Below are positions 7,143-26,015 of a stretch of DNA of 64,000 nucleotides, piece after piece. Both the position numbers and the translations under genes were made by a program. Below the pieces are notes generated by a model, which saw nothing but the letters and a program-made list of their open reading frames with translations, was not told the DNA's origin and searched no databases. The first letter of the stretch is position 1. Every line of letters starts with the position of its first letter. This stretch comes from an uncultured Clostridium sp. (lineage in GTDB: Bacteria > Bacillota > Clostridia > TANB77 > CAG-508): the NCBI GenBank assembly GCA_948468275.1, contig CAOKHI010000002.1, positions 166-64,165 on the forward strand, written 5' to 3'.

Positions 7143-8052
7143 TATAGAAATGAAACTGTTAAGACAGATATCAGATTTAGAAGATAATTTTGTTGGTGCG
7201 TATAATATTAGAAAAGATGGAGAAGGAATAAAGAAGAATATAACTGAAAATGTTAATATAGTGACTAAACAAGATGCTTCTGGAATAGATATATATGTAA
7301 AAGAAAATACAAAATTTGAAGTTATACATATTCCTGTAATTATAACTAAAAGTGGACTAAAAGATGTTGTATACAATGATTTTTATATAGGAAAGAATGC
7401 AAATGTAGCAATAATTGCAGGATGTGGAATACATAATGATCATAATAAAGATTCTGAACATAATGGAATACATAGATTTTTTTTACAAGAAGGTGCAAAA
7501 GTAAAATATATAGAAAAACATTATGGAGAAGGAAATGGAACAGGAAAAAGAATATTAAATCCAATAACTGAGATAGAATTAAAAAAAGGTGCAACATTAG
7601 AAATGGATACAATACAAATTAAAGGAGTAGATTCTACAATAAGAACTACAAAAGCATTGTTAGAAAATGATACAAACTTAATTATAACAGAAAAAGTAAT
7701 GACACACGGTATACAAACTGCTACAACTGAATTCGAAGTGACATTACAAGGAGAGAATTCAAGTACACATGTAACATCAAGATCAGTTGCAACTGAAAGG
7801 TCAAAACAAAAATTCGTTTCTAAAGTATTTGGAAATACAAAATGTTTTGCACATGTAGAATGTGACGCCATAATAAAAGATGTAGCATGTGTACAAGCTA
7901 TTCCAGAAATAATTGCAAATAATGTAAATGCAAATCTAATTCATGAAGCAGCAATAGGAAAAATTGCAGGAGAACAATTAATAAAGTTAATGACACTAGG
8001 ACTTAGTGAAAAAGAAGCGGAAGAAACTATTATAAATGGTTTTTTAAAGTAG
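7135..8052 (+). CDS. SufB/SufD family Fe-S assembly protein (short form)
   Basis: 305 aa beta-helix-like repeats. C-terminus HEAAIGKIAGEQLIKLMTLGLSEKEAEETIINGF is typical of SufB/D. Coupled to sufC. Confidence 0.7.
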   Translation: MDSIEMKLLRQISDLEDNFVGAYNIRKDGEGIKKNITENVNIVTKQDASGIDIYVKENTKFEVIHIPVIITKSGLKDVVYNDFYIGKNANVAIIAGCGIHNDHNKDSEHNGIHRFFLQEGAKVKYIEKHYGEGNGTGKRILNPITEIELKKGATLEMDTIQIKGVDSTIRTTKALLENDTNLIITEKVMTHGIQTATTEFEVTLQGENSSTHVTSRSVATERSKQKFVSKVFGNTKCFAHVECDAIIKDVACVQAIPEIIANNVNANLIHEAAIGKIAGEQLIKLMTLGLSEKEAEETIINGFLK

Positions 8053-8065
8053 TAAGATTACATAA

Positions 8066-8094
8066 TTGATTTTTGTATTAAAATTTGTTATAAT
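8066..8094 (+). promoter_or_regulatory. sigma-A type promoter of multi-HTH gene 1
   Basis: TTGATT -35, 17 nt spacer, extended -10 TGtTATAAT. The block is repeated almost verbatim upstream of the two paralogs. Confidence 0.6.
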
Positions 8095-8123
8095 TAGTTT
8101 ACAAAAAATATTGGAGGTATGGT

Positions 8124-8900
8124 ATGAGTACAATAACAGAAGTAACTAAACAAAAACGGTTAAGAAAAGAGGAGGAATTAAAACAAGATTTAATACATTC
8201 ATCTAAAACAATTCAAATGCAAATTATCTTGAAAAGTAGCGAAATTAATTATGATCAACCAATAGGACAGATAATAAGACAAGCAAGGGAAATGCAAGGT
8301 CTTACATGTAAAGAACTATCAAAATTAAGCAATATATCTAAGGATCAAATAGATAATATTGAATCAGGTAGAACTAAGCAACCACAGTTAAATACTATAA
8401 GAAGGTTATTCCAAGCGCTAAAGCTAGATAGAGAAAAACTTATTTCGAAAGGTAAAGAAATTAACTATGACTTACCATTTGGACAACTAATAAAACAAGC
8501 AAGGGAAATTCAAGGTATTACGTGTAGAGAACTTTCAGAATTAATCGATGCATCTGAGAATCAAATACATAATATTGAATCAGGTAGAACTAAGCAACCA
8601 CGGTTAGATACTATAAGAAGGTTAATCCAAGCTCTAAAGTTAGATAGAGAAAAAGTTATATCAAAAGGTAACGAAATTAACTATGACTTACCATTAGGAC
8701 AAATAATAAAACAAGCAAGGGAAATGCAAGCTCTTACACTTAAAGAACTATCAGAAATAAGTGAGATATCTATATCTCAAATATATAGTATTGAATCAAG
8801 TACGACAAAACGTCCAAATTCATATACCATAATAAAGTTAACACAAGCTCTAAATTTAGAATTAGATCTTGTACTATATGTGCTAAATACCAAATGCTAA
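8124..8900 (+). CDS. protein with 3 tandem XRE-type HTH modules
   Basis: About 40 aa leader, then 3 units of about 72 aa (INYDxPxGQIIKQAREMQGLTCKELSELSxISxxQIxxIESGRTKQPxLDTIxRLxQALKLDxEKLISKGNE). Confidence 0.85.
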   Translation: MSTITEVTKQKRLRKEEELKQDLIHSSKTIQMQIILKSSEINYDQPIGQIIRQAREMQGLTCKELSKLSNISKDQIDNIESGRTKQPQLNTIRRLFQALKLDREKLISKGKEINYDLPFGQLIKQAREIQGITCRELSELIDASENQIHNIESGRTKQPRLDTIRRLIQALKLDREKVISKGNEINYDLPLGQIIKQAREMQALTLKELSEISEISISQIYSIESSTTKRPNSYTIIKLTQALNLELDLVLYVLNTKC

Positions 8901-8916
8901 CAACAAAAAATTTTTT

Positions 8917-8963
8917 ACGAACTAAAACAACCTTACAAGAATTTGGAGGTTGTTTTAGTTCGT
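8917..8963 (+). terminator. long hairpin terminator, copy 1
   Basis: acgaactaaaacaacct-N13-aggttgttttagttcgt, 17 bp stem. The same element follows all three paralogs. Confidence 0.6.
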
Positions 8964-9058
8964 ATATTTATTGGAAAAAGATAATTAACATTTGCTTAAT
9001 TCAAAAAAAGAGTGGTTTTTTTTAGTGGTTAGGCTATTAAGCAGTAAAGATTACATAA

Positions 9059-9087
9059 TTGATTTTTGTGTTAAAATTTGTTATAAT
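9059..9087 (+). promoter_or_regulatory. promoter of multi-HTH gene 2
   Basis: Same TTGATT / TGtTATAAT block as at 8066. Confidence 0.6.
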
Positions 9088-9116
9088 TAGTTTACAAAAA
9101 ATATTGGAGGTATGGT

Positions 9117-10095
9117 ATGAGTACAATAACAGAAGTAACTAAACAAAAACGGTCAAAAAAGGAGGAATTAAAAAAAGATCTAATACTTTTATCTAGACCA
9201 ATTCAAATGCAAGTTACCTTGCAAAATAGCGAAATTAATTATGACCAACCATTAGGACAGATAATAAGACAAGCAAGGGAAATGCAAGGTGTTACACGTA
9301 AAAAACTATCAGAATTAAGCGATATATCTGAGGATCAAATACTTAATATTGAATCAGGTAGAACTAAGCAACCATATTTAGATACTATAATAAGGTTAAC
9401 AAAAGCTCTAAATTTAGATAGTAAAAGACTTATTTCGAAAGGTAAAGAAATTAACTATGACTTACCAATAGGACAAATAATAAAACAAGCAAGGGAAATA
9501 CAAGGCCTTACGTGTGAGAAGCTGTCAGAAATAAGTGAGATATCTAAGAGTCAAACATATAGTATTGAATCAGGTAAGACAAAAAAACCAAAGTTAGATA
9601 CCATAATAAAGTTAATACAAGTTCTAAATCTAGATAGTAAAAGAGTTATTTCGAAATATAACGAAATTAACTATGACTTACCAGTAGGACAAATAATAAG
9701 ACAAGCAAGGGAAATGCAAGGTCTTACATGTAAGAAGCTATCAGAAATAAGTGAGGTATCTACAGCTCAAATATATAGTATTGAATTATGTAAGACAAAG
9801 TGTCCAAGATCATCTACCTTAATAAAGTTAACACAAGCTTTAAATCTAGATGTTGAAAAACTCATTTTGAAATGTAATGAAATTAATTATGACTTACAAG
9901 TAGGACAAATAATAAGACAAGCAAGGTCTTACGTGTAAGAAGCTGTCAGAAATAAGTGAGATATCTATGGTTCAAATATTTAGTATTGAATCAGGTAGAA
10001 CAAGAAAACCAAAGTTAGATACCATAATAAAGTTAACACGAGCTCTAAATTTAGAATTAGATCTTGTACTATATGTGCTAAATACCAAATACTAA
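9117..10095 (+). pseudogene. protein with 4 tandem XRE-type HTH modules, frameshifted in module 4
   Basis: Identical architecture to the neighbours. At 9926/9927 an 11 bp unit (gacaagcaagg, present at the homologous site near 12170) is missing. The last module continues in another frame to TAA 10093-10095. Confidence 0.8.
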
Positions 10096-10122
10096 AAACA
10101 AAAAAATTTTTTACGAACTAAA

Positions 10123-10159
10123 ACAACCTTACAAGAATTTGGAGGTTGTTTTAGTTCGT
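10123..10159 (+). terminator. long hairpin terminator, copy 2
   Basis: Same stem as 8917..8963. Confidence 0.6.
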
Positions 10160-10256
10160 ATATTTATTGGAAAAAGATAATTAACATTTGCTTAATTCAA
10201 AAAAAGAGTGTTTTTTTTAGTGGTTAGACTATTAAGCAGTAGTAAGATTGCATAAT

Positions 10257-10448
10257 GTCAATGATTTACGAATATTTCACCATATATGTTCTTGGCATTG
10301 GGTCTCTATAAATATGTTTTATTAGCCATTAGGAGCAAGCATTATAATTTTATAAATGGCTTGCCCTTATGCATAATGCTAACATATTTATTCTCAATAT
10401 CAAGAAATCGTTTCACTCATATAGGGTGAAATATTTATAAATAAAATA
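10257..10448. mobile_element. MITE-like 192 bp insertion with subterminal inverted repeats
   Basis: aatatttcaccatata (10271-10286) vs tatagggtgaaatatt (10420-10435). Flanked by a 20 bp direct repeat, cagtagtaagatt[g/a]cataat, at 10237-10256 and 10449-10468. Absent from the equivalent spacers of copies 1 and 2. Confidence 0.45.
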
Positions 10449-10467
10449 CAGTAGTAAGATTACATAA

Positions 10468-10496
10468 TTGATTTTTGTGTTAAAATTTGTTATAAT
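10468..10496 (+). promoter_or_regulatory. promoter of multi-HTH gene 3
   Basis: Same TTGATT / TGtTATAAT block. Confidence 0.6.
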
Positions 10497-10525
10497 TAGT
10501 TTACAAAAAATATTGGAGGTATGGT

Positions 10526-12355
10526 ATGAGTGCAATAACAGAAGTAACTAAACAAAAACGGTTAAAAAAGGAGGAATTAAAAAAAGATCTAATACTTTTA
10601 TTTAGAACAAATCAAATGCAAATTACCTTTGAAAGTAGTGAAATTAATTATGAGCAACCAATAGGACAGATAATAAGACAAGCAAGGGAAATGCAAGGTC
10701 TTACGTGTAAAGAATTATCAGAATTAAGCGATATATCTAAGGATCAAATATGTAATATTGAATCAGGTAGGACAAAAAATCCAAGTTTATATACTTTAAC
10801 ACAGATAATACAAGCTTTAGAGAATGTAAAAGATATTTGGAAAGGTAACGAAATTGACTATGAGCAACCAATAGGACAGATAATAAAACAAGCAAGGAAA
10901 ATGCAAGGTCTTACATGTAAAGAACTATCAGAATTAAGTAATATATCTGAGAATCAAATATATCGTATTGAATCAGGTAGAACTAAGCAATTACATTTAG
11001 ATATCATAATACGGTTAACACAAGCACTAAAGCTAGATAGAGAAAAACTTATTTCGAAAGGTAACGAAATTAACTATGACCAACCAATAGGCCAAATAAT
11101 TAAACAAGCAAGGGAAATGCAGGCTCTTACGCGTAAAGAACTATCAGAATTAATCGATGTATCTAAGGAGCAAATATATAATATTGAATCAGGTAAAACT
11201 AAGCAACCACAGTTAGATACTAGAAGAAGGTTATTCCAAGCACTAAAGCTAGATAGAGAAAAACTTATTTCGAAAGGTAACGAAATTAACTATGACTTAC
11301 CATTAGGACAAATAGTAAAACGATTAATGGAAATGAAGGGTCTTACGTGTAGAGAACTATCAGAATTAAGTGGTATATCTGAGACTGAAATATATCGTAT
11401 TGAATCAGGTAAGAGAAAATATTCAAGATTATATATTTTAGCACAGATAATACAAGCTTTAAAGAATGTAAAAGATATTTCGAAAACTAGCAAAATTAAT
11501 TATGACCAACCATTAGGACAGATAATAAGACAAGCAAGGGAAATGAAGGGTCTTACGTGTAGAGCACTATCAGAATTAAGCGATATATCTGAGACTCAAA
11601 TATATAATATTGAATCAGGTATAACTAAGCAACCATATTTAGATACTATAATAAGGTTAACAAAAGCACTAAATCTAGATAGTGAAAAACTCATTTCGAA
11701 ATGTAATGAAATTAATTATGACTTACAAGTAGGATCAATAATAAGACAAGCAAGGGAAATGCAAGGTCTTACATGTAAGAAGCTATCAGAAATAAGTGAG
11801 GTATCTACAGCTCAAATATATAGTATTGAATCAGGTAAGACAAAAAAACCAAATTTAGATACCATAATACGGTTAACACAAGCTTTAAATCTAGATGTTG
11901 AAAAACTTACTTCGAAAGGTAATGAAATTAACTATGACTTACAAGTAGGACAAATAATAAGACAAGCAAGAGAAATACAAGGTATTACATGTGAGAAGCT
12001 GTCAGAAATAAGTAAGATATCTATAGCTCAAATATATGATATTGAATTAGGTAAGATAAATCCTATACCTTTAGATACCTTAACACAGTTAACACAAGCT
12101 CTAAGGCTAGATAGCGAAAAACTTATTTTGAAAAATGACAAAATTCAAGTAGGACAAATAATAAGACAAGCAAGGGACAAGCAAGGTCTTACGTGTAAGA
12201 AGCTGTCAGAAATAAGTGAGATATCTATGGTTCAAATATTTAGTATTGAATCAGGTAGAACAAGAAAACCAAAGTTAGATACCATAATAAAGTTAACACG
12301 AGCTCTAAATTTAGAATTAGATCTTGTACTATATGTGCTAAATACCAAATACTAA
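10526..12355 (+). CDS. protein with 8 tandem XRE-type HTH modules
   Basis: 609 aa. Same leader as the paralogs, then eight HTH_XRE-like units, two with a short variant linker (ALENVKDI / ALKNVKDI). Confidence 0.85.
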   Translation: MSAITEVTKQKRLKKEELKKDLILLFRTNQMQITFESSEINYEQPIGQIIRQAREMQGLTCKELSELSDISKDQICNIESGRTKNPSLYTLTQIIQALENVKDIWKGNEIDYEQPIGQIIKQARKMQGLTCKELSELSNISENQIYRIESGRTKQLHLDIIIRLTQALKLDREKLISKGNEINYDQPIGQIIKQAREMQALTRKELSELIDVSKEQIYNIESGKTKQPQLDTRRRLFQALKLDREKLISKGNEINYDLPLGQIVKRLMEMKGLTCRELSELSGISETEIYRIESGKRKYSRLYILAQIIQALKNVKDISKTSKINYDQPLGQIIRQAREMKGLTCRALSELSDISETQIYNIESGITKQPYLDTIIRLTKALNLDSEKLISKCNEINYDLQVGSIIRQAREMQGLTCKKLSEISEVSTAQIYSIESGKTKKPNLDTIIRLTQALNLDVEKLTSKGNEINYDLQVGQIIRQAREIQGITCEKLSEISKISIAQIYDIELGKINPIPLDTLTQLTQALRLDSEKLILKNDKIQVGQIIRQARDKQGLTCKKLSEISEISMVQIFSIESGRTRKPKLDTIIKLTRALNLELDLVLYVLNTKY

Positions 12356-12372
12356 AAACAAAAAAATTTTTT

Positions 12373-12417
12373 ACGAACTAAAACAACCTTACAAGAATTT
12401 GGAGGTTGTTTTAGTTC
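12373..12417 (+). terminator. long hairpin terminator, copy 3
   Basis: Same stem with one mismatch. Confidence 0.55.
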
Positions 12418-12572
12418 ATATATTTATTGGAAAAAAGAATTAACATTTGCTTAATCCAAAAAAAAGAGGAGCTTTTTGATCATCTTTTAGGTTAGACTAT
12501 TAAGTCAAATTATTGACACAAATAAAGGGATATGATAATCTTTAAGAGAGTAAAATAAAAAGGAGATTTGCT

Positions 12573-21904: not shown

Positions 21905-21945
21905 CGAAATTGACTTTTGAAAAAAAAAATATTAAAATATAAAAA

Positions 21946-22291
21946 GAGTAAATTGAATAGTCGCGTGTACAAATCGCAAGGTTGTATATGAGGAAAGTCC
22001 GGGCTCCACAAGAGCAATGATGCTGGATAACGTCCAGTGAAGGAAACTTCAAGGAAAGTGCAACAGAAAATAACCGCCTAATTTTTTAGGTAAGGATGAA
22101 AAGGTGAGGTAAGAGCTCACCGCAGATATGGTGACATATCTGGTCAGTGTAAACCCCATCTGGAGCAACACCTAAGCATGAGAAGGTTAAGATGCTCTTT
22201 CGTCTTCTCAAATTGGTGGCATGAGGTATATAGTAATATATATCCTAGATAAATGACTATTCACGACAGAACCCGGCTTATAGATTTACTT
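21946..22291 (+). ncRNA. rnpB: RNase P RNA (bacterial, Bacillota type)
   Basis: Universal GAGGAAAGTCCGGGCTCC near the 5' end and ACAGAACCCGGCTTA near the 3' end. P1 pairing gtaaat/atttac. GC far above background. Confidence 0.9.
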
Positions 22292-22424
22292 TAAAATATG
22301 ATAATACAAGTAAAGTTCTTTGCTAAAAAATGTAATATATTATTCGATAGTTTTTAAGTATTTTAATCGAATATACTTCTAAAATAATAATCATTTTTTA
22401 GCAAAGGGCTTTACTTATCTATTT

Positions 22425-24611: not shown

Positions 24612-26015
24612 ATGGAAAAAAGATTAGATTTAGTAAAAAAATGGAATGAAAGGGCAAATAGAGATTTATCAATAAGAAAAAACAAATCACAAAAAGGAAT
24701 AACATTAATAGCATTAGTAATAACAATAATAGTACTATTAATTTTAGCAGGAGTGACGATAAATATATTGTTTGGTGAAAGAGGAATACTAAAAATATCA
24801 GAAGAAGCAGCACTTTCAACAAGAGGAGCAAATGTAAAAGAGCAGGTAGAACTATGGAAAGCAGAAAAACAAACAGACAAAAAAACAGGACACAGTGGCA
24901 ATACAAAAACAGAAAAAGAATTATTAGATGATTTAGAGATAAATCAAAAAATACTAAAAAATGAAGAAAGAAACCAACTAGAAGAACAAAGAACAGTAAC
25001 AATAGGGAATCAAGTTATAACATTAGGAGAATACGAAGAAAATATACCTACAGGAGTATATCCTAAATTGTACTCATATAAAGATGGTAGAGAAGGAAAA
25101 GTATTAGAATTATCTCACGATGTAAATTATATAGACAGTGAGTTGCAGTTAGAAGATGATTATGATAATGTTGATGTGGGGGATATGAAGCCGATTGATG
25201 ATTTTTATCCTGGATATAGTTTTATGAACTATCCATGGATTGAGTCAGAATATCAAGGAGCAGGAGTATGGGTACAATACAATTATGAAATAGTTGAAGT
25301 GAAAATAGTTGATAGGATTTTGCCTAATATTTTGCAAGATTATTTTATTGGATGTGAAAGATTAAAAAATATAGAAGGGCTAAATAATATTGATACTTCA
25401 AACGTAAGTAATATGCAGGGGATGTTTTTAAGATGTAGTAGTCTAACAAATCTAGATATAAGCAATTTTAAAACTGATAATGTTACTAATATGGGGAGTA
25501 TATTTTCAGGATGTAGTAGTCTAACAAATCTAGATATAAGTAATTTTAAAACTGATAATGTTACTAATATGTGGAGTATGTTTTCAGGATGTAGTAGTCT
25601 AACAAATCTAGATGTAAGCAGTTTTAAAACTGATAATGTTACTAGTATGGGGAATATGTTTTCAGGATGTAGTAATCTAACAAATTTAGATGTAAGCAGT
25701 TTTAAAACTGATAATGTTACTTATATGGGGAATATGTTTTCAGGATGTAGTAGTCTAACAAATCTAGATGTAAGCAATTTTAAAACTGATAATGTTACTA
25801 ATATGGAGTATATGTTTTCAGGATGTAGTAGTCTGACAAATCTAGATATAAGCAATTTTAAAACTGATAATGTTACTAATATGAGCTATATGTTTTCAGG
25901 ATGTAAAAATTTAATAAAGATATATGTAAATCCATTAACATGGGTAACTGGTCAAGCTAATACAGATAACATGTTTAATGAATGTGGTACAAGTGAGGTA
26001 ACATATAAGGAGTAA
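24612..26015 (+). CDS. surface protein: prepilin-like N-terminal segment + BspA/DUF285-type leucine-rich repeats
   Basis: KGITLIALVITIIVLLILAG after a 28 aa leader. Seven 25 aa units NMxxMFSGCSSLTNLDxSNFKTDNVT. Confidence 0.75.
   Translation: MEKRLDLVKKWNERANRDLSIRKNKSQKGITLIALVITIIVLLILAGVTINILFGERGILKISEEAALSTRGANVKEQVELWKAEKQTDKKTGHSGNTKTEKELLDDLEINQKILKNEERNQLEEQRTVTIGNQVITLGEYEENIPTGVYPKLYSYKDGREGKVLELSHDVNYIDSELQLEDDYDNVDVGDMKPIDDFYPGYSFMNYPWIESEYQGAGVWVQYNYEIVEVKIVDRILPNILQDYFIGCERLKNIEGLNNIDTSNVSNMQGMFLRCSSLTNLDISNFKTDNVTNMGSIFSGCSSLTNLDISNFKTDNVTNMWSMFSGCSSLTNLDVSSFKTDNVTSMGNMFSGCSNLTNLDVSSFKTDNVTYMGNMFSGCSSLTNLDVSNFKTDNVTNMEYMFSGCSSLTNLDISNFKTDNVTNMSYMFSGCKNLIKIYVNPLTWVTGQANTDNMFNECGTSEVTYKE
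25404..25910 (+). repeat. 75 bp in-frame tandem repeats (LRR units)
   Basis: About 7 near-identical 75 bp units (…ggatgtagtagtctaacaaatctagat…tttaaaactgataatgttactaatatg…). Confidence 0.9.

Follow-up and report, generated by a model that had tools for sequence, protein, structure and literature searches.

What might a bacterium gain from carrying up to eight different DNA-binding domains on a single polypeptide chain? Few DNA-binding domains are as common in bacteria as XRE-type helix-turn-helix (HTH) domains, which are understood almost wholly as dimers with one domain per chain. A locus of an uncultured Clostridium sp. offers a natural alternative. It was examined at positions 8051-12417, on the + strand, of a 64-kb stretch of contig CAOKHI010000002.1 (assembly GCA_948468275.1), hereafter called the window. 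Three head-to-tail open reading frames (ORFs) on this strand encode chains of as many as eight different HTH modules, and the module content of the chains varies between near-identical strains. We regard the locus as probably a species-specific tandem family of single-chain, multi-module XRE proteins, presumably DNA-binding, whose diversity comes from recombination of the modules. Our description of how the locus is built and has evolved is likely to stand; DNA binding, heterotypic specificity and a biological role are what we infer from the sequence.

Three cassettes of XRE modules

Gene 1 (8124-8900) encodes 258 amino acids, made of an N-terminal region of about 46 residues and three XRE modules whose first helices start at 8265, 8481 and 8697. 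Gene 3 (10526-12355) encodes 609 amino acids, with an N-terminal region and eight modules (helix 1 starts at 10664, 10874, 11090, 11306, 11516, 11732, 11948 and 12152). As encoded, gene 2 (9117-9938) yields 273 amino acids, namely the N-terminal region, three intact modules and helix 1 of a fourth, and ends in ...QARSYV*. All three genes lie on the + strand. Tandem Repeats Finder (TRF) detects a 216-bp period with 2.9, 3.9 and 7.8 copies in genes 1, 2 and 3, respectively (about 80% matches); the modules are 204-216 bp long and number 3, 4 and 8 at the DNA level. The sizes of three, four and eight modules given in an earlier note on this DNA are correct for the DNA. As encoded the proteins have three modules, three plus a stub, and eight, gene 2 being frameshifted.

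The same note had read the modules as XRE HTH domains, and the profile searches and structure predictions that were run agree with it. The Pfam families HTH_3, HTH_19 and HTH_31 match 3, 3 and 8 separate stretches in genes 1, 2 and 3, with scores of 81-220 bits against gathering cut-offs of 23-30.2. Each of the 14 modules that are in frame scores as an XRE/Cro-C1 HTH domain, and NCBIfam gives generic XRE-type matches only. AlphaFold2 models the gene 3 product as eight units of five helices, with a predicted local distance difference test score (pLDDT) of 70-88 for the units and below 50 for the linkers and residues 1-38, and with a predicted template modelling score (pTM) of 0.27. The gene 1 product is modelled as three five-helix units (mean pLDDT 77, pTM 0.43). 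With such pTM values and low linker pLDDT, no packing between modules is predicted with confidence, and we rejected a fixed superstructure. The predicted architecture is that of beads on a string, independent five-helix domains on short linkers, the latter with the conserved sequence (K/S)-x-N-E-I-N-Y-D-L/Q-P. The N-terminal part of each protein is a charged helix. In Foldseek searches of the PDB, single modules match SinR bound to DNA (3zkc), P22 c2 bound to its operator (3jxb) and C.AhdI (1y7y), with TM scores of 0.82-0.89 and root-mean-square deviations of 1.2-1.4 Å; HipB, CapH, DdrO and complexes of Stl with dUTPase are also among the matches. No solved chain with a tandem array of such domains is found among these PDB matches. 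The PDB sequence search returned only the N-terminal HTH of Stl, a SaPI repressor (7p4a, E = 7e-4).

The 5' and 3' signals are common to all three genes, each of which thus has a promoter and a terminator of its own within a duplicated cassette. The 75-85 or so nucleotides before the ATG are identical or near-identical in the three genes, as are the first 45 or so codons nearly so. The shared 5' signals are TTGATT and TATAAT separated by 17 nt, with a TG extension, and GGAGG 7 nt ahead of the ATG. They place the predicted promoters at 8066-8094 for gene 1, at 9059-9087 for gene 2, with the same hexamers and spacing, and at 10468-10496 for gene 3; that of gene 1 was called as a consensus match. 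All three genes end in a terminator with the 17-bp stem ACGAACTAAAACAACCT/AGGTTGTTTTAGTTCGT. The hairpin has a folding energy of -27.5 kcal/mol (z = -9.3) and is directly followed by AUAUUUAUU. The hairpins lie on the + strand at 8917-8963 (17-bp stem, 13-nt loop), 10113-10159 and 12373-12419, the last with one stem mismatch. Each gene thus appears to be transcribed on its own, from a near-consensus sigma-A-type promoter to an intrinsic terminator, and to have a strong ribosome-binding site. The near-identical promoter, 5' region, N-terminus and terminator described earlier for the three adjacent genes were found for all three cassettes. The gene 1 promoter also sits in an inverted repeat, TTTTTGT-N24-ACAAAAA (8070-8107), which brackets the -10 box, and autoregulation at this repeat is possible. 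In the window the repeat occurs only at the three duplicated promoters and is hence uninformative: because the whole cassette has been duplicated, its conservation cannot be used to judge autoregulation.

The genes had been described as differing only in module number between their common ends. This does not hold, as module pairs in the window share 64-90% DNA identity, the terminal modules of genes 2 and 3 excepted, and are not interchangeable. A common last module is found in genes 2 and 3, whose terminal modules are identical save for an 11-bp deletion, but that of gene 1 has only 82-86% DNA identity to them. The last module closes with a distinctive hydrophobic helix (LELDLVLYVLNTKY/C), and the C-terminal end of the terminal module of gene 1 is ...LELDLVLYVLNTKC. 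The CKKLSEISEVSTAQIYSIE block reported as common to module 3 of gene 2 and module 6 of gene 3 is real, with 90% DNA identity and an exact tract of 95 bp.

The deletion accounts for the frameshift of gene 2. In the last module of gene 3, the 11-bp unit GACAAGCAAGG is present as a perfect tandem of two copies (12165-12186), the intact form. Module 4 of gene 2 has a single copy at the deletion site (9916-9926), and the gene 2 ORF stops at 9938 because the missing copy shifts the frame. Re-insertion of the 11 nt gives a four-module protein of 329 amino acids with the same C-terminus as gene 3. The out-of-frame remainder of module 4 (9939-10095) lies inside a 242-bp exact repeat (9916-10157, equal to 12176-12417 at the 3' end of gene 3), which extends from the deletion across the stop codon and the terminator.

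Variation between modules and between strains

The 15 modules of the window were aligned with eight from a related contig, L001. They share a conserved scaffold, with GQIIRQAREMQGLT in helix 1, an L-S-E-L/I-S core in helix 2, an I-E-S-G cap and A-L in helix 4. By column entropy, the most variable parts are positions 1, 2, 5 and 6 of the recognition helix, helix 3, together with the loop between helices 3 and 4. On alignment, we take the variable helix 3 positions to be those of Gln28, Gln29 and Gln33 of the 434 repressor (TQQSIEQLENG), its base-contacting residues, and presume that the variable positions of the modules correspond more generally to the base-contacting positions of the 434 and P22 repressors.

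Substitutions were counted over seven non-overlapping pairs of nearest-neighbour modules, with helix boundaries taken from the AlphaFold models. Helix 3 has 26.5 non-synonymous and 0.5 synonymous changes, a ratio of non-synonymous to synonymous change (pN/pS) of about 10 (binomial p = 0.008), and the loop between helices 3 and 4 has 33.5 and 4.5 (pN/pS 2.3, p = 0.04). The values for helix 1 (16.0 and 6.0, pN/pS 0.64), helix 2 (13.0 and 7.0, pN/pS 0.48) and the turn between them (7.0 and 9.0, pN/pS 0.29) are not significant. Helix 3 and the loop taken together differ from the rest of the module (Fisher p = 6e-5).

Close relatives of the array were found only on four further short contigs of the same species (L001, L002, L090 and L091), from gut-type metagenome assemblies in ENA (ERZ14651001, ERZ14650989, ERZ14864005 and ERZ14864634). 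These are short-read assemblies with 2.7-4.6x coverage, and several of the contigs begin or end within repeats. The sequences of L001 and L091, which stem from two samples, share 99.9% identity. Over 3.7 and 9.9 kb of flank (the AMP-binding gene, the gene for ribosomal protein L32 and beyond), they are 99.6% identical to the window. The last gene on these contigs also has eight modules but in another mosaic, bears the 11-bp deletion in its last module and encodes 551 amino acids. Its modules 3 and 4 are 98-99% identical to modules 1 and 2 of gene 2 and its modules 6-8 are 97-99% identical to modules 6-8 of gene 3, while modules 1, 2 and 5 are new, with 86-90% identity to any module of the window. 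On L091, this gene is directly preceded by a gene 1-like 3' end, a terminator and the palindromic insert described below, so that there is one cassette fewer than in the window. On L002, modules 1-5 of gene 3 (99-100%) are joined to module 3 of gene 2 and a frameshifted module, and the crossover is located within the shared 95-bp tract. On L090, intact modules 7 and 8 of gene 3 type close a gene that lies upstream of a gene 2-like, again frameshifted one.

Strains whose flanks share about 99.6% identity differ in gene number, gene order, module composition and indel state. Where module 7 is followed by module 8, the 11-bp indel is intact in the window and in L090 and deleted in L001 and L091; the unit is seen as two copies or one, with states differing between samples, and two is the largest number of copies. 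The mosaic, recombining family envisaged in the earlier note is thus borne out by four contigs of the same species, with their other mosaics, their gene number and order and their polymorphic indel. That the locus is built to vary in copy number also fits the differences between samples, with the reservation that these come from low-coverage short-read contigs. In the mechanism that we propose, homologous recombination among the 204-216-bp modules and among whole cassettes, by unequal crossing-over or gene conversion, would make new combinations. Slippage at the 11-bp duplication would cost the protein its terminal module, hydrophobic helix included; a paralogue could supply both again by gene conversion. 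The indel may represent a switch, by slippage as at a phase-variable contingency locus or by gene conversion, through which the terminal module is lost, or else a recurrent form of decay.

The palindromic insert, which resembles a miniature inverted-repeat transposable element, is about 190 nt long and lies between cassettes 2 and 3 (10257-10448, no strand assigned). It is flanked by a 20-nt direct repeat, CAGTAGTAAGATT[G/A]CATAAT, and forms a long imperfect palindrome with an RNA minimum free energy of -59.7 kcal/mol. It is also found upstream of the last gene in L001 (69-246) and L091. The window and 80 related loci contain no further copy, and the insert has no match in Rfam. An RNA element in the untranslated regions or the insert was rejected, as Rfam gave nothing above threshold; matches to 'sucC RNA' at the three gene starts, with 22-23 bits against a gathering score of 50, are attributed to chance.

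As for the distribution of the family, it comprises just two clusters at 50% identity in an exhaustive HMMER search. Relatives of gene 3 are found neither in the GTDB species genomes nor in the JGI metagenomes. A word-index search with gene 3 missed genes 1 and 2, even though they were in the collection, and a word-index search with gene 1 added family members; the family counts are lower bounds. The neighbouring AMP-binding ligase has its best match, at 77% amino acid identity, in metagenome-assembled genomes from uncultured gut Clostridia, which are CAG:389-like and about 1.5 Mb in size. Of the 80 loci around this neighbour, none contains a module match, and upstream synteny is not kept, which precludes a comparison with an empty site. 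The family appears to be specific to one species or lineage.

Possible DNA reading and its alternatives

As the modules differ mainly at four exposed positions of helix 3 (1, 2, 5 and 6) and in the loop behind it, each module may read a different short DNA half-site. A chain would then read a long composite site with high avidity and be a natural version of the engineered single-chain 434 repressors. If we had to guess their role, we would favour proteins that repress or silence targets which evolve fast, mobile DNA for instance; such targets are suggested by the diversifying selection together with the shuffling between strains and the restriction to one lineage.

Several points weigh against this proposal. 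The substitution counts are small and gene conversion breaks the independence of sites; the region made of helix 3 and the loop was partly picked after the data had been seen; and the helix 3 test falls just short of significance after Bonferroni correction over seven elements (p of about 0.05). TRF detects no candidate operator array in the 64-kb window, and a conserved cellular role is doubtful for a family that comes from a single species. Furthermore, with low coverage and exact repeats of up to 242 bp, some of the mosaics may be assembly chimeras, and the frameshift of gene 2, together with non-conservative changes in its module 3 (ESG to ELC, LDT to SST), resembles decay. Even so, the scaffold helices appear to be under purifying selection and the reading surface to be diversifying, as in functional heterotypic modules and unlike decay.

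Carried further, the matter of chimeras becomes the view that assembly collapsed or expanded a simpler locus, and that mis-joins account for both the three-gene order and the different mosaics of the samples. Exact repeats of 242, 110, 95 and 83 bp in the window, and the shallow comparison contigs with ends in repeats, give it some substance. Most modules, however, are less than 90% identical to one another and provide unique k-mers, and the frameshift site is linked to unique sequence just upstream. We consider the polymorphism largely real because the arrangement of L001 and L091 occurs in two samples that agree at 99.9%, because it includes modules that cannot come from mis-joined window sequence, and because module orders are independently confirmed, that of gene 3 modules 1-5 at 99-100% in L002 and the structure of gene 2 in L090. 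An artefact of this sort is quite improbable. Neutral churn of repeats, in which an amplified XRE gene drifts into pseudogenes and the variability reflects relaxed constraint, is unlikely for other reasons. It would explain the frameshift of gene 2, the identical 11-bp deletion that cuts the last gene in both L001 and L091, the loss of the conserved ESG and LDT motifs from module 3 of gene 2, and the confinement of the family to one species. Yet, one indel aside, the reading frame is open in all 15 modules and each scores as an HTH domain, and promoters, ribosome-binding sites and terminators are intact. Moreover, where neutrality predicts a pN/pS of about 1, helices 1 and 2 have values of 0.5-0.6, indicative of purifying selection, and helix 3 is well above 1.

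If the modules are functional, they might still do something other than read specific sequences. The proteins could be abundant, low-specificity nucleoid-associated or bridging proteins, whose weak HTH contacts coat AT-rich DNA and whose module number sets the footprint. High expression is suggested by the GGAGG site and by promoters that are close to consensus and carry a TG extension, and the predicted beads-on-a-string chains with flexible linkers, in a genome of 27% GC, would suit such a function. In a non-specific binder, however, non-synonymous changes should not gather on the face of helix 3 that reads bases, and a core nucleoid protein would be expected to be conserved among related species, whereas none of the 80 related loci has a syntenic relative and none was found in the genome collection. 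The concentration of variation in helix 3 appears to favour sequence-specific, heterotypic DNA reading over such coating, which we regard as improbable. Alternatively, the XRE modules may serve as interaction surfaces, as in Stl, SinR-SinI or HipB-HipA, and capture partners such as phage proteins, acting as decoys or sensors. The N-terminal HTH of Stl is the best sequence match of known structure, Foldseek lists Stl-dUTPase complexes, and diversifying selection is also typical of arms races between proteins. Against this, the likeness to Stl is limited to the generic HTH, and the adjacent genes include no toxin, kinase or defence gene that could be a partner. In addition, the variable positions are those of the base contacts in the 434 and P22 repressors. 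Protein capture thus seems very unlikely.

Returning to specific DNA reading by recombining modules, it is tempting to speculate that the family is a bacterial counterpart, built from XRE modules, of KRAB zinc-finger or TALE proteins, in which recombination keeps making new composite specificities, diversifying selection on the recognition helix reflects an arms race with phages or transposons that the proteins silence, and the 11-bp indel serves as an on/off switch for the C-terminal module. This bolder version is possible, if rather doubtful. If true, natural single-chain DNA readers that can be re-targeted would be a general class, made up of about 1300 unstudied multi-XRE clusters. More modestly, if the modules read DNA independently, the locus would provide a compact prokaryotic scaffold for long, re-targetable recognition sites and a first handle on a sizeable unstudied multi-XRE class. 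The locus also offers a tractable system in which to study how recombination drives the evolution of regulator specificity in a gut commensal.

The wider multi-XRE class and the genomic setting

The exhaustive HMMER search, used to size the wider class, yielded 1312 cluster representatives at E <= 1e-3, of which 98 reach E <= 1e-10. Each of the 150 best among the 1312 has 2-19 XRE modules as counted with hidden Markov models, and Pfam confirms ten of them. Among these 150, three is the commonest number of modules (57 proteins); five proteins have eight modules, two have nine, two have eleven, and one each has 12, 14 and 19. Among those of the 150 that lie outside the present family, twelve have 8-19 modules, so that eight XRE modules on one chain are not unprecedented in sequence databases. 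The earlier note knew of no characterised regulator with eight such domains, and this stands as far as the literature searches go: those on tandem or multiple XRE or HTH proteins gave only the two-domain Wmk and no other paper on multi-XRE chains. The sole names of ten representatives that were looked up are 'helix-turn-helix domain-containing protein', for example in Streptodolium elevatio. The multi-XRE architecture is thus widespread in databases yet unstudied, and this locus is an unusually dynamic variant of it.

Tandem XRE modules on one chain, as in the array, are found in the Streptodolium elevatio protein (WP_358359983.1), with 12 modules, and in P0126, with 19. The nearest group outside the family includes P0005, which has five modules, 41% identity and the shared signature NIExGKTKxP, and P0018, which has three; the genes of this group lie directly after rplQ in similar gut Firmicutes. 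The multi-XRE proteins of the databases have at most 41% identity to those of the array and are single genes where their context was examined, unlike the heterotypic gene family described here. A five-module protein, P0008 (L089:2518-5284), the one of these arrays to be compared module by module, adjoins a phage-type integrase, where a CI-like repressor usually sits. Its modules are near-identical, with almost the same recognition helices, and hence homotypic, whereas those of the array are heterotypic. We also observed a distant multi-XRE subfamily whose members start with MPNNLG... and have 3-5 modules (L084:910-1995, L085:8001-8627 and L086:2441-3067). Its position is conserved on several gut Firmicute contigs, directly downstream of the rplQ gene that ends the rpsM-rpsK-rpsD-rpoA-rplQ cluster.

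Module for module, the array proteins have the same fold and belong to the same sequence family as single-domain XRE regulators such as 434, P22 c2, SinR, C-proteins, HipB, DdrO and CapH. The latter have one HTH per chain and form non-covalent dimers or tetramers through a separate oligomerisation domain, whereas the array proteins chain 3-8 HTH domains and have no other domain; the prophage, restriction-modification or toxin partners of such regulators are absent from the vicinity of the array. Simoncsits et al. are said to have described, in J Mol Biol in 1997, engineered single-chain 434 repressors with two 434 DNA-binding domains head to tail. In these, covalently linked lambda-like HTH domains need no dimerisation domain to bind a composite operator, and swaps of the recognition helix re-target them. 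They are artificial and have two domains, where the array proteins are natural and have 3-8. A similar module-array logic, with variation at base contacts and duplication or shuffling of modules, is found in C2H2/KRAB zinc-finger arrays, TALE repeats and CUT-repeat proteins (CUX1). The analogy is one of logic only, as these are eukaryotic proteins or secreted effectors and their folds are unrelated, with the exception of CUT and POU-specific domains, which are lambda-repressor-like. More than one XRE HTH per chain is also found in Wmk of the Wolbachia phage WO, which has two HTH_XRE domains (PMC9203015), and the Wmk model NF047948 aligns over two adjacent modules of the array. Unlike the array proteins, Wmk has only two modules, is borne by a prophage and acts in a eukaryotic host.

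The array lies between, on one side, genes for a LysM-M14 peptidase, a SufC-like ABC ATPase and a SufBD protein and, on the other, genes for an AMP-binding acyl-CoA ligase and ribosomal protein L32. This is a chromosomal housekeeping context. The GC content is about 27% across the window, and the locus resembles its surroundings in composition. No toxin, restriction-modification, integrase or defence gene adjoins the array, and no close relative was found in IMG/VR, the GenBank phages or the PLSDB plasmids; seven weak plasmid matches in PLSDB, at 39% identity or less, cover one or two modules.

A number of identities were considered and rejected. The match to the HipB/Y4mF antitoxin model (TIGR03070) exceeds the cut-off in its summed score, owing only to the eight repeats, and the adjoining genes are those for the SufC-like, SufBD and AMP-binding proteins. 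Wmk (NF047948) scores 82.8 bits with gene 3 and 37.2 bits with gene 1, against a cut-off of 300. A phage CI/Cro repressor or a restriction-modification controller was set aside, as the proteins contain only HTH domains and have housekeeping flanks. As for known defence systems, PADLOC gives only HTH-level matches (HTH_VI, the N-terminal HTH of RmrA, CapH and control proteins), whose partner genes are not nearby.

Elsewhere in the window, one other XRE-type protein is encoded (43718-43993, - strand), a single-domain HTH_26 protein of 92 amino acids with weak similarity to the modules (14 bits). A class A RNase P RNA (21945-22296, 296 bits) and a tRNA-Leu gene (57013-57096) confirm the chromosomal context. 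Finally, a coding region at 25422-25905 contains a 78-bp tandem repeat (6.2 copies, 93% matches), whose 26-residue unit, ...SGCSSLTNLDISNFKTDNVTNMGN..., resembles the BspA-type LRR_5 repeats of surface proteins; another LRR_5 protein is encoded on L085, from a related organism.

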